From an uncultured Alphaproteobacteria bacterium (GTDB taxonomy: Bacteria; Pseudomonadota; Alphaproteobacteria; CAAHEQ01; UBA3637): a stretch of 63,877 nucleotides of DNA. Below the pieces are notes generated by a model that did no database searches, had not been told where the DNA came from, and was given only the letters and a program-made list of their open reading frames with translations. The stretch lies in NCBI GenBank assembly GCA_937888725.1, contig CALARE010000092.1, positions 1-63,877 on the forward strand, given 5' to 3'. Below, in pieces: positions 57,005 to 59,416 of this stretch (the stretch's first letter is position 1; the number at the start of each line of letters is the position of its first letter). Position numbers and translations under genes: made by a program.

Positions 57005-58084
57005 ATGTCAAAAAAAGAGCCCGTTAAGCAAAAGTCAAAATCATTAAGCGGTAATAAACTTTCTGTGACAAGAGGGTCGGCATTGATGGAGCGGGCGGCA
57101 CGCAAGTCAATGGTTTCAAAAAAGAAAAGTTCTGCTGCTAAGGCTTTTTTTGATATTAATAAGCAGGGGTTGACGCGTGTTTTTGTTGCAGGCGGGTCAC
57201 GTTCTGGCAAAGATCCGTTATATGAAGAACAGGCCTATATGTTGGGGGAGGAAATTGGTAAAAAACACTATCGTCTTGATTTTGGTTTGTCATCAAAAGG
57301 GATTATGGGTGCTGTTGCAAAAGGTGTGCTTAAAGGTTGGAGTGAAACAAAAACAAAATCAATAGATGAAAAACCTATCCATGCTGTTACAACAAAGGAA
57401 TATTTGGCTTTGTATCAAAGTGATAGTGTCATTGATGAAGTGTCAGATATTATTGTTTCCCATACATTAGAGGAGCGTAAACAACAGCTTTTGGGGGCTG
57501 ATTTTGTGATTTTTGCTCCAGGTGGTGTTGGCACATTAGATGAACTTGCTTATGATTGCGTGGCAATGCAAGATGGTTTTTTAAACTTTAAGCCATTTGT
57601 TTTGTTTAATGTGCAAGGGTTCTTTTATCACCTGCTTGAATATTTAAAGGAAATTCAAAAAGAAGGGTTTGCAAGTGCCATTCCCTTTATCGTGGCAGAT
57701 GATAGTTTTGAGGCAAGCGTTGCTTTCGATATGATAGATTTGTTTTATAAAAAAGAGATTGAAAAAAAGCCCACGCATGCTAAATCAATTTTAAATAGAT
57801 TGATTTATTTATTGCCATATGTCATTTATCGCAGGCATTTGTATCATACAGAAAGTACGAAAATGATTTTGACGAAGATGGATGAGGTGTATAAGCATGG
57901 TCTCCCAAAAGAAAAAAAACAATTAGAGGATGATATTGAAACTGCCTATTTGAATAAAGAGATTGAACGGATGTATGAGCGACTTGCTAAGGCGGGTAGG
58001 GATACCGCCTCTGTGAGTGATAAGTTGCATAAATTAAAAAGTAGATATCGCCATGGTACTCGCTTTAAAATGCCTCAGTGGTAA
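57005..58084 (+). CDS. LOG family protein (TIGR00730-type Rossmann fold; cytokinin riboside 5'-monophosphate phosphoribohydrolase-like) with N- and C-terminal extensions
   Basis: VFVAGGSRSG...GIMGAVAKG and the signature PGGVGTLDEL. At 359 aa it has ~55 extra N-terminal and ~130 extra C-terminal residues. Confidence 0.7.
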   Translation: MSKKEPVKQKSKSLSGNKLSVTRGSALMERAARKSMVSKKKSSAAKAFFDINKQGLTRVFVAGGSRSGKDPLYEEQAYMLGEEIGKKHYRLDFGLSSKGIMGAVAKGVLKGWSETKTKSIDEKPIHAVTTKEYLALYQSDSVIDEVSDIIVSHTLEERKQQLLGADFVIFAPGGVGTLDELAYDCVAMQDGFLNFKPFVLFNVQGFFYHLLEYLKEIQKEGFASAIPFIVADDSFEASVAFDMIDLFYKKEIEKKPTHAKSILNRLIYLLPYVIYRRHLYHTESTKMILTKMDEVYKHGLPKEKKQLEDDIETAYLNKEIERMYERLAKAGRDTASVSDKLHKLKSRYRHGTRFKMPQW

Positions 58085-58265
58085 TATGGATATTTGAATC
58101 TTTTTGAATACGCTTAAGATGGTGTTTTAAACACATTTACAATTATTTCAATCTCATTCGATAACACAAAAGAAATTCAAATTTTTTTGAGAGCTAAATT
58201 TGGAAAATAGTTAATGAATGATTTTTTAATTTAAGCGGTACTTGATTTTTTAGTGTAAAATTTCC

Positions 58266-58294
58266 TTGCAAACAAGAGTTATTTTTGATATGCT
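58266..58294 (+). promoter_or_regulatory. sigma70-like promoter TTGCAA-N17-TATGCT
   Basis: -35 at 58266..58271 and -10 at 58289..58294. A 7-bp inverted repeat ACAAGAG/CTCTTGT (58272..58278 / 58293..58299) brackets the spacer and the -10. Confidence 0.45.
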
Positions 58295-58300
58295 CTTGTC

Positions 58301-58537
58301 GTTGGGATGAGCCTAGTCCCAACTAGGGTGTCACAACCCGATTACACCAAGGGCAATGGTCGATTGCTATTATCATAGACCAAAGTCAAAAGGCATCCAC
58401 TTTTAAAAAGTGTTTTTATGCACATTTATAGGGTGGATGCCTACTGAATAGGAGCATTCGCTCTGAATAAGTAGGACTATCTACTTGGTGTAATAGTTGT
58501 GAACATCCACCCGCCTCATTGAGGTGGGTTTCTCTTT
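58301..58537 (+). ncRNA. Structured ~240-nt leader or ncRNA ending in an intrinsic terminator; riboswitch/attenuator-like, class not recognised
   Basis: Hand-found helices: hairpin 58301-07/58317-23; long-range P1 58331-37 + 58341-51 with 58484-94 + 58496-502 (18 bp); 58391-400/58433-42 (10 bp); 58440-45/58470-75 with inner 58452-55/58460-63. The terminator is 58509-15/58523-29 plus TTCTCTTT. An alternative 9-bp pairing 58431-39/58504-12 competes with it. Confidence 0.55.
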
Positions 58538-58570
58538 GTTATAATCTGGGATAATAAAAAGGAGTGAGAT

Positions 58571-59068
58571 ATGGGGAAAGTTTGTACATTTTTTGGACAT
58601 CGAACAATTTTAAGAACTCCTTTTTGTGTGCAACGGACGCGTGAAGTTATGATTGATTTAATTGAAAATCATGATGTAGATGTGTTTATTTTGGGTGATC
58701 ATGGGCAATATGACAATTTGTGTTTTTCAATAGCAAGAGATTTAAAGAAACAATATCCCCATATTTGTTTGCACCTTTATTTGCCTTATATAGAAAAACA
58801 CGGGGAAAATCGTATCAATGAGGGTTACGATAGTATTGAAATAACAGATATTGGGTCTAGATGTCCTTATCGATATAAATTCCCGCGTCGAAATGAAATT
58901 ATGGTTGCAAGATGTGATTTTTTTGTTTGTTATATTAAGTGGAGTTGGGGTGGTGCTTTTAATGCCCTAAAAATCGCTATGCGAAAGAAAAAACACATTA
59001 TTAATATTGCAAGGGAAGAAGGCGTTTGTACGTTTAATGAAGATGGTTCATTAAAAGATGATATTTAA
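58571..59068 (+). CDS. SLOG-superfamily protein of the DUF1273/YpsA type
   Basis: The pattern recalls YpsA-like proteins: CTFFGHRTI start, VDVFILGDHGQYDNLC, KKQYPHICLHLYLPY, RRNEIMVARCDFFVCY, GGAFNALKIA. A GGAG RBS is present. Confidence 0.55.
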   Translation: MGKVCTFFGHRTILRTPFCVQRTREVMIDLIENHDVDVFILGDHGQYDNLCFSIARDLKKQYPHICLHLYLPYIEKHGENRINEGYDSIEITDIGSRCPYRYKFPRRNEIMVARCDFFVCYIKWSWGGAFNALKIAMRKKKHIINIAREEGVCTFNEDGSLKDDI

Positions 59069-59416
59069 CCCACAGGCATTGAGTAATTCAAAAATATCAA
59101 TCGGCTTTATTAAAACCTCATCAAAACCAAGAGATAAGAGTGTTTTCTTATCATTCTCAAAAGCAAAAGCTGTGATGGCGATAAGGGGAATTTTTTTTGT
59201 TTTTTTGATGCGTTTTAAATAATAACAAAGTTCGATACCAGAGATGCGGGGTAAGCCGATATCTGTTAAAATAAGATCGGGGGTTACTTTTTTCAATAAC
59301 ATAATTGCCTCTAAGGCAGAACAAGCTTGGATAACTTTTGCCCCACCAGCGGTTAATATATCAAAAAATAAACGCCTGTTTAAAGGGTTGTCTTCTATAA
59401 GTAGAATGGTTTTCAT
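59051..59416 (-). CDS. Single-domain response regulator (CheY/DivK-like receiver)
   Basis: ILLIEDN acidic pocket, phospho-acceptor LILTDIGLP, AITA, IKP lysine; 121 aa. Its 3' end overlaps the convergent SLOG gene by 18 nt. Confidence 0.9.
   Translation of the reverse strand: MKTILLIEDNPLNRRLFFDILTAGGAKVIQACSALEAIMLLKKVTPDLILTDIGLPRISGIELCYYLKRIKKTKKIPLIAITAFAFENDKKTLLSLGFDEVLIKPIDIFELLNACGLNIIF

Follow-up and report, generated by a model that had tools for sequence, protein, structure and literature searches.

Small RNAs (sRNAs) of the sRNA-Xcc1 family (Rfam RF02221) are described as trans-acting and form tandem arrays in Xylella (PMC12189769). In the literature they are borne by integrons, as cassettes of Xanthomonas, and also occur in phages, plasmids and Xylella islands, often upstream of symE, and their mechanism is not understood. 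Here we describe a leader RNA from an uncultured Alphaproteobacteria bacterium, one of whose two predicted folds resembles the three-way junction of sRNA-Xcc1. The leader is encoded on the forward strand of contig CALARE010000092.1 (GenBank assembly GCA_937888725.1), and the whole stretch analysed (63,877 nucleotides, nt) is called the window below. We propose that this RNA is a cis-acting transcription-attenuation leader that carries its own sigma-70-type promoter and would control a downstream SLOG-like gene by adopting one of two mutually exclusive folds, a reading of the sequence to which we assign a probability of roughly 0.6. Both folds, the terminator, the promoter and the linkage to a gene are conserved, and we infer which way the switch works and that an effector takes part.

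The proposed arrangement has parallels among known attenuators. In S-box (SAM-I) and PyrR-type leaders, an upstream strand sequesters the antiterminator and thereby frees the 5′ half of the terminator, and the decision is made on the nascent transcript. The corresponding parts here would be segment A with the 5′ strand of helix P2, segment B with hairpin H2, and segment C, respectively. However, there is no sequence or Rfam relationship to these leaders, and the genes concerned do not make up a metabolic pathway but encode secreted or surface proteins. T-box leaders (RF00230) are also alike in length (200 to 250 nt), in their dozens of copies per genome, in the choice between antiterminator and terminator, and in an antiterminator whose 5′ strand starts with GGGUGG. 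Yet the architecture differs, no T-box match was obtained (E ≤ 10 in the window, E ≤ 1 at 20 loci), and the genes that follow our leaders are surface, secreted or SLOG-like rather than aminoacyl-tRNA synthetase or amino-acid genes. Riboswitches for cyclic di-GMP (c-di-GMP-I and -II; RF01051 and RF01786) share the terminator-based platform and the many copies per genome before pilin-like and adhesin-like genes, but their fold is different, no Rfam match to them was found, and our leaders also occur in two genomes (G002 and G006) without a detectable GGDEF domain.

The C4 RNA of phages P1 and P7, on which Citron and Schuster reportedly published in 1990 and 1992, is said to be a small multi-hairpin RNA in which two short segments pair with complementary segments of the same transcript. 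C4 and the IsrK RNA are also said to combine variable paired segments with a position upstream of antirepressor-type genes in prophages, which recalls some Xcc1-like copies described below. In contrast to these RNAs (RF01695 and RF01394), which gave no Rfam match at E ≤ 1 on 20 loci, our leaders have their complementary segments upstream and end in an intrinsic terminator as output.

Two mutually exclusive folds

Together with its promoter and terminator, the leader occupies nucleotides 58266 to 58537 of the window (plus strand) and yields a strongly structured RNA of ~235 nt (Table 1). The predicted folding energy of the plus strand is -101.7 kcal/mol, compared to -62.3 ± 4.5 kcal/mol for dinucleotide-shuffled sequences (z = -8.7), and none of 200 shuffles folded as well. 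The minus strand gives a z value of -6.0. The plus strand is the functional one, because the frequent G-U pairs in its helices would be A-C mismatches on the opposite strand. The element has a G+C content of 43%, as opposed to 34.7% for the genome.

In the minimum-energy fold, the long-range helix P2 joins nucleotides 58326 through 58351 with 58484 through 58508. A preliminary description of this locus, made from the letters alone, had recognized P2 as a helix of 18 base pairs; it is present and covaries, but is longer than was thought. The 10-base-pair A:B helix and the P5 hairpin with its internal loop, both reported in the same description, are likewise found. In the terminator fold (T), P2 would close a multi-helix junction and the A:B helix would leave segment C free, such that the 3′ end of C could pair with segment D (C:D) and stop transcription at the U-tract. 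In the read-through fold (AT), the B:C helix, P5 and H2 would form an Xcc1-like three-way junction that removes the base of the terminator stem and lets RNA polymerase enter the gene.

These folds exclude each other because B is unable to pair with A and C simultaneously, because the last four bases of C are also the base of the terminator stem, and because most of the 3′ strand of P2b (58484 to 58494) resides in the loop of H2, with its last two bases located in the AUAGU arm. Similarly, P2a and the local hairpin P2′ should be incompatible, since the 5′ strand of P2a forms the loop of P2′. The element had been presented as a four-segment switch in which A:B plus C:D is exclusive of B:C. This logic holds, and the pairings are borne out by covariation across 121 distinct copies, but the switch has more layers than four segments, as H2 (CUAU/AUAG) also takes part in the read-through fold and competes with P2.

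The terminator stem has nine base pairs, six of them G-C, and is directly followed by the U-tract UUCUCUUU, as expected for an intrinsic (Rho-independent) terminator. The terminator itself had been anticipated, whereas the proposed distance of 34 nt to the ribosome-binding site was inaccurate: the site begins ~30 nt past the stem and 22 nt past the U-tract. The downstream gene had been named DUF1273/SLOG, which survives only as a weak likeness to YpsA below the Pfam cut-off (Table 1). A sequence search of the Protein Data Bank with this 165-amino-acid protein returned nothing useful.

Covariation supports both folds

The covariation that the preliminary description had called for was sought in related genomes, and both folds were found to covary. 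For the read-through fold, the last 135 nt of 121 distinct copies were aligned with MAFFT (alignment A5), and this alignment was not fitted to any structure. The helices of the AT fold (B:C, P5a and H2) are paired in 92.6% of alignment cells, compared to 35 to 46% when the partner strands are slid against each other. The B:C helix is 98.9% paired over 118 distinct rows and shows compensatory changes at five of nine pairs, as exemplified by one position that is occupied by GC in 60 copies, CG in 27, UA in 14 and UG in 12. P5a is 97.6% paired with compensatory changes at all five pairs, and the AAUA motifs of the P5 internal loops are invariant or nearly so. In H2 (96.2% paired), the two central pairs change together from UA/AU to CG/GC in 13 sequences. 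For the C:D helix of the terminator, pairing reaches 90.5% and seven of nine pairs are compensatory, and at least five U nucleotides lie within 8 nt past its stem in 88% of copies.

For the terminator fold we used a MAFFT alignment of 22 copies (A2), which was also the source of a covariance model of the leader (R1). Here 84.7% of cells are paired, compared to no more than 47% with slid partners, and 30 pairs are compensatory. Compensatory changes are found at six of seven pairs of P1, in 8 to 11 sequences per pair of P2a and P2b, and at all four base pairs of P3, which is paired in 78% of cells and differs widely in length between copies. The A:B helix is 93% paired, but its changes are mostly one-sided and generate G-U pairs. 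Because A:B is held mainly by such wobbles, A acts as a weaker mimic of C. Consistent with this, cognate A:B duplexes are predicted at -13.7 kcal/mol (-11.3 for non-cognate strands), and cognate B:C duplexes at -15.5 kcal/mol (-10.6 for non-cognate strands).

P2 is the most variable helix and is specific to each copy. Over 121 copies, its cognate strands pair with -18.3 kcal/mol, as opposed to -9.1 ± 2.9 kcal/mol for non-cognate strands, and in 93% of copies the cognate pairing beats the non-cognate mean. Among close copies, the P2 helices differ at 0.21 to 0.26 per site, always with compensation, compared to 0 to 0.05 for P1, H2, B and C; the P1 stem is nearly invariant (0.018 differences per site). 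The most conserved parts that do not covary, namely the P5 internal loops, B, C and H2, are all located within the Xcc1-like junction.

Two further elements lack such support in A2. A pseudoknot between the P1 loop and a GGC sequence is suggested by eye in divergent copies (UGCCC/GGGCA, GUCC/GGAC, CGUCC/GGACG and GGCG/CGCC), but in A2 it is 86% paired and never varies, and we retain it as tentative. For P2c, an extension of P2 (GGGUGU/ACAUCC), the pairs in A2 are either invariant or broken.

Table 1. Positions of the leader's elements and of related features. Coordinates refer to the window unless a genome, contig or locus is given; (+) denotes the forward strand.
Feature	Position	Description
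Predicted sigma-70-type promoter	58266-58294 (+)	-35 TTGCAA 58266-71; 17-nt spacer with TG 58286-87; -10 TATGCT 58289-94; read from sequence
P1, 5′ hairpin	58301-58323 (+)	GUUGGGAU / GUCCCAAC; GCC in loop; in minimum-energy fold
Long-range helix P2, 5′ strand	58326-58351 (+)	P2a 58332-37; P2b 58341-51
P2′, local hairpin alternative to P2	GGGU 58326-29 / ACCC 58336-39 (+)	GC to AU covariation in 8 sequences
GGC, tentative pseudoknot partner of GCC (58311-13, P1 loop)	58352-58354 (+)	By eye, divergent copies
P3, variable hairpin	58357-58382 (+)	Base UGGUC / GACCA; in minimum-energy fold
Segment A	58391-58400 (+)	AGGCAUCCAC; partner of B in terminator fold; anti-antiterminator strand
Segment B	58431-58442 (+)	GGGUGGAUGCCU; partner of A (terminator fold) or C (read-through fold)
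A:B helix	58391-58400 with 58433-58442 (+)	AGGCAUCCAC with GUGGAUGCCU; 10 base pairs
Complementary cores of B and C	58431-58439 and 58504-58512 (+)	B core GGGUGGAUG; C core CAUCCACCC
P5 hairpin	58440-58475 (+)	Internal-loop strands UGAAUAG 58445-51 and UGAAUAA 58464-70; common to both folds
H2, hairpin of read-through fold	58476-58497 (+)	ACUAU 58476-80 / AUAGU 58493-97
P2a, 3′ strand	58496-58501 (+)	GUUGUG; compensatory changes at 5/5 pairs
Segment C	58503-58512 (+)	ACAUCCACCC; antiterminator partner of B; last 4 nt are the 5′ base of the terminator stem
Intrinsic terminator	58509-58529, U-tract 58530-58537 (+)	Stem ACCCGCCUC / GAGGUGGGU; loop AUU; U-tract UUCUCUUU; match in terminator scan
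Ribosome-binding site	58559-58564 (+)	AAGGAG
Downstream open reading frame, 165 amino acids	58571-59068 (+)	Weakly YpsA/SLOG-like; Pfam YpsA E = 0.0055, 17 bits (cut-off 27.7)
GGDEF protein, source genome	G000:C56:14105-14542	70.9 bits; orthologues in genus
Tandem leaders, L026 (G002:C14:83000-86600)	1531-2105	
Tandem leaders, L023 (G002:C14:43800-47400)	1542-2114	
Tandem leaders, L024 (G005:C5:25300-29300)	1437-2488	
Tandem leaders, L025 (G012:C4:36500-40500)	1409-2459	

Relationship to sRNA-Xcc1

At the gathering threshold, an Rfam scan of the whole window recovered only a tRNA and no family for the leader, in agreement with the earlier impression that the element belongs to no known riboswitch class. 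A permissive scan of nucleotides 58050 to 58650 gave only microRNA and snoRNA matches at chance level, and no match to RF02221 at E ≤ 10. When 20 loci were scanned permissively, RF02221 matches of 35 and 27.6 bits appeared, the latter being the best in the source genome and belonging to its C90 copy; the gathering score of this family is 53 bits. In these alignments the outer helix of sRNA-Xcc1 maps to B:C, its hairpin 1 to P5 and its hairpin 2 to H2 (CUAU/AUAG). Sub-threshold matches are present in 48 of 80 genomes of the taxonomic family (best 48.9 bits, none of the 80 over the cut-off) and in none of 14 control genomes. Among those listed matches whose coordinates were compared, several fall inside the 3′ halves of R1 matches.

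The reverse comparison used a second model (R2) built from the 3′ domain of the leaders in the AT fold only. With this model, 9 to 10 of the 20 bona fide Xcc1 loci tried are recovered where they should be; the E values range from 9e-7 to 0.3 (eight with E ≤ 0.01), and the scores are only 14 to 33 bits. Because matches occur in both directions, albeit below threshold, the read-through fold is probably distantly related to sRNA-Xcc1, or at the least closely analogous to it in structure. By the 53-bit criterion of Rfam the leaders fall outside the family. The parts of its junction, namely the outer helix, the hairpin with AAUA/GAAUA loops and the second hairpin, are all present, and these three helices covary in 118 distinct copies. 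The leaders and sRNA-Xcc1 also share a UUNGAAC-like joiner, occurrence in tandem arrays and positions upstream of genes (for example symE in the case of Xcc1). Unlike sRNA-Xcc1, the leaders carry an additional 5′ competitor domain of ~130 nt (P1, the 5′ strand of P2, P3 and A) and an overlapping intrinsic terminator, and they are chromosomal, with 6 to about 39 copies per genome mostly before surface-protein genes. Literature searches, including searches for sRNA-Xcc1 as a riboswitch, found no description of such leaders; the family is uncatalogued, and its antiterminator is Xcc1-like.

The best RF02221 matches in the taxonomic family (48.8 bits at L166, nucleotides 1501-1584, in G023:C10; 48.9 bits at L167, nucleotides 1501-1584, in G005:C14) belong to a shorter, more Xcc1-like element that is absent from the list of R1 matches. 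This element lies upstream of genes for 222-amino-acid proteins whose N-termini, as we take them, resemble phage antirepressors of the Bro-N/KilAC type.

Distribution and genomic context

On the evidence of sequence searches, the element in the window is one copy of an uncatalogued leader family whose members number 6 to about 40 per genome in uncultured Alphaproteobacteria of the gut. DNA searches find full-length copies at 76 to 83% identity within the genus, and matches to the 3′ half in other places too, including the source genome. With R1, six copies are found in the source genome (on contigs C92, which is the window, C69, C4, C3, C90 and C40), and within the taxonomic family matches occur in 71 of 80 genomes, spread over 13 of 16 genera, with 26 to 39 copies each in four relatives whose genomes measure 0.9 to 1.3 Mb. 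Outside the family, only 8 of ~298 sampled genomes of the class have matches, all of them 0.9 to 2.0 Mb in size. When genomes of named species were scanned for an exact pattern, 31 loci emerged, and every one belongs to a metagenome-assembled genome (MAG) of ‘uncultured Alphaproteobacteria’ (one labelled ‘Rhodospirillaceae’); where a source is named, it is a gut site (rumen, rectum, colon or jejunum) in ruminants and deer.

The promoter TTGCAA-N17-TATGCT of the preliminary description is present in the window, although it is absent from the output of a simple promoter scan with rules of its own (four or more matching bases in each hexamer and nine or more of the 12 overall). Across the family, a sigma-70 match of at least 9/12 is found at a fixed upstream position in 62% of 120 copies, compared to 7% of control windows, and no more than ~5 nt separate the end of the -10 box from the point where the covariance-model match starts. 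Similarly, 109 of the 113 copies with enough flanking sequence are directly followed by an open reading frame (ORF) on the same strand, which starts at a median of 15 nt past the model match.

Most of the genes concerned are pilin-like, SLOG-like, lipoprotein or outer-membrane genes. The downstream ORFs form a few groups: a large cluster of secreted proteins (52), many of which are prepilin-like with a GRSMVEMLG-type N-terminus, SLOG/YpsA-like proteins (23), and lipoproteins of 61 amino acids (9). In the source genome, the SLOG-like gene is one of the genes that leaders precede; the others encode a membrane protein of 320 amino acids, a beta-barrel protein of the outer membrane (Pfam OMP_b-brl, E = 9e-20), a lipoprotein and, with no Pfam match, a repetitive protein (452 amino acids or more) that we read as adhesin-like. 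Therefore, the original view of the element as the leader of a SLOG gene must be replaced by that of a multi-copy family mainly located before surface-protein genes. SLOG-like orthologues (30 to 45% identity) do follow the same leader at six related loci in three genera. A specific association with LOG or SLOG genes was considered and rejected, as related loci have no LOG gene beside the leader and genes of other kinds follow most copies.

The sixth copy of the source genome (G000:C4:16009-16266, minus strand) is followed within 3 kb only by ORFs of 19 and 43 amino acids and by no longer gene on the same strand. Possibly this leader is an orphan, or else it controls a micro-protein.

Leaders also occur head to tail, in pairs ~320 nt apart (as in G002) and in triplets, where each copy has its own promoter-like site (Table 1). 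In the triplets, an ORF of 62 amino acids follows the first copy. These arrangements resemble the tandem sRNA-Xcc1 arrays of Xylella.

Among otherwise near-identical copies, P2a exists in two discrete and fully compensated versions (GUCACA/UUGUGA and GUCGAA/UUUCGA), which are combined with three versions of P2b (A2 rows G000_C92, G002_a-d, G004, G006 and G018; window 58330-58351 and 58484-58502). Such shuffling of P2a versions with P2b versions suggests recombination or gene conversion between leader copies.

Energetics and a model for the switch

To compare the two states, every copy was folded under constraints that force either T or AT. T is the more stable fold in every one of the 120 scorable copies; the difference averages 16.2 kcal/mol (7 to 25 between the 5th and 95th percentiles), and in the window copy the values are -101.7 kcal/mol for T and -81.5 kcal/mol for AT. 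Since T is favored in every scored copy, termination is probably the thermodynamic default state. If so, read-through should require either a kinetic route or a factor that stabilizes AT.

During transcription, P1, P2′, P3, A:B and P5 would form first, after which H2 and then C would emerge from the polymerase. A putative factor, which might be a small molecule, a second messenger or a protein, would at this stage bind and stabilize the Xcc1-like junction and turn the gene ON. Otherwise, the 5′ strand of P2 would invade H2, P2 would zip up and B would return to A, leaving C and D to terminate transcription. We favor the Xcc1-like part as the sensor because the invariant nucleotides that do not covary (P5 loops, B, C and H2) are located there. 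This junction also exists alone in other bacteria. The leader shows two general features of riboswitches, a covarying structured domain and an expression platform in which mutually exclusive terminator and antiterminator structures share segment C, and direct, specific binding of a small molecule would make it a true one.

We tentatively extend this model, as a speculation less likely than the attenuation mechanism itself, to suggest a new class of riboswitch or riboregulator in which the Xcc1-like junction might sense a single global signal inside the cell. With its 6 to about 40 leaders in each genome, such a class could co-ordinate a large part of the surface proteins that gut Alphaproteobacteria with reduced genomes export (pilin-like proteins, lipoproteins, outer-membrane proteins and adhesins), along with the SLOG-like proteins. 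By extension, the orphan sRNA-Xcc1 RNAs of integrons, phages and plasmids might be cis-acting switches of this sort and not plain trans-acting sRNAs.

Cyclic di-GMP was considered as a universal ligand. A single GGDEF-domain protein of ~360 amino acids is found per genome (56 to 80 bits) in 14 of 16 members of the genus. This candidate is weakened by G002 and G006, in which no GGDEF domain was detected even though both are 98% complete and carry seven and five leaders, respectively; MAG incompleteness keeps this result short of decisive.

If the model is true, a single RNA design would gate several per cent of the transcription units across a family of uncultured animal-gut Alphaproteobacteria. 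This would represent a major, hitherto unknown regulatory layer of host-associated bacteria, operating mainly before cell-surface genes. It would also provide a testable function, as antiterminator or sensor domain, for the sRNA-Xcc1 motif that is widespread in integrons, phages and plasmids. The more than 100 natural variants with two well-defined folds would then be a substrate for ligand and protein hunts and for studies of co-transcriptional folding in three-layer switches.

Alternative explanations

Several observations weigh against the attenuation model in its ON-switch form. The preference for T by 16 kcal/mol and a pre-formed A:B helix obscure the route by which AT could be reached. 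Furthermore, the genes concerned (pilin-like, lipoprotein, outer-membrane, SLOG-like and secreted endonuclease) point to no metabolite. The junction of the T fold (P2, P3, P4, P5 and perhaps the P1-loop pseudoknot) could equally be the sensor, in which case a ligand or protein would enforce termination, and AT would otherwise arise by kinetic preference because the local H2 and B:C structures form faster than P2. The succession of anti-antiterminator, antiterminator and terminator is the design of S-box-type OFF switches, and it is shared by our leaders. Moreover, P2′ and H2, the local hairpins that would delay P2, both covary, and the sequence of the P1 stem is strongly conserved. An OFF switch of this kind nevertheless seems rather unlikely to us, given that the strands specific to the T junction show little conservation in the wider family (many copies have lost GGGCA, and P3 varies or is missing), that the invariant nucleotides reside in the Xcc1-like part, and that T is already the more stable fold without a ligand. 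Also counting against the attenuation model, tandem copies with their own promoters and the one copy followed only by tiny ORFs fit an independent sRNA equally well. The RNA would then be an abundant, stand-alone trans-acting sRNA of ~235 nt, an enlarged relative of sRNA-Xcc1 (itself described as trans-acting and, in Xylella, as tandem; PMC12189769), and the exchange of A:B for B:C would reflect maturation or refolding induced by a target. That the terminator fold is the thermodynamic ground state agrees with such a role. To this we assign a low probability, as in 96% of copies a gene with a ribosome-binding site follows on the same strand after no more than a few tens of nucleotides, and as every copy has a covarying overlap between C and the terminator stem, which a plain sRNA would not need. 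In addition, no homologue of Hfq or CsrA was found by tblastn in the 99.95%-complete source genome, in which the controls Rho, NusG and SpoT were recovered, and this also weakens the case for either protein as a partner. The roles of sRNA and leader need not exclude each other.

The copy-specific P2 segments could also act in the manner of the a′/b′ recognition segments of C4. In such a private antisense system, leaders would pair in trans with nascent transcripts of their own locus and cause locus-specific feedback or bistable expression of surface genes. The fast but always compensated evolution of P2 and the poor pairing of non-cognate strands would suit this role, as would the location of one P2 strand in the loop of H2 and the other in the loop of P2′, a geometry typical of kissing antisense pairs. 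Xcc1-like elements also lie upstream of putative antirepressor-like genes in G005 and G023. However, a purely structural helix that drifts neutrally with compensation would account for these data just as well, neither C4 nor IsrK gives an Rfam match, and action in trans is unsupported, which leads us to regard this possibility as quite improbable. Lastly, the element might be a repeat or mobile element resembling a miniature inverted-repeat transposable element (MITE), with a fortuitous fold and no regulatory role. It is indeed multi-copy, and in fragmented assemblies many copies lie at contig ends. Such an origin is very hard to reconcile with pairing that is kept in more than 40 base pairs despite sequence divergence and with the fixed orientation and spacing relative to promoters and genes, and no transposase or terminal repeats were seen.

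Neighboring genes and minor observations

Upstream of the leader in the window lies a LOG-family gene (57005-58084, plus strand; Pfam Lysine_decarbox, E = 6.5e-15) that encodes 359 amino acids with long N- and C-terminal extensions. No LOG gene is present within 1.5 kb of the leader in related genomes, and the adjacency of LOG and SLOG is therefore particular to the source genome. On the other side, a gene for a single-domain response regulator (59051-59416, minus strand; Response_reg, E = 4e-22) converges on the SLOG-like gene with an 18-nt overlap of the 3′ ends.

At three loci (L088, L089 and L096) of genome G071, in which many leader copies are found at contig ends, an inserted repeat of ~65 nt (CATTGCGAGG...GTGGCAATCTGATGAGATTGCTTCACTATCGTTCGCAATGAC) separates the leader terminator from the ribosome-binding site of SLOG-like genes. 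The repeat is apparently palindromic and MITE-like. Related repeats are located inside the predicted N-terminal regions of many pilin-like ORFs, and the start codons of these ORFs are therefore probably mis-called.

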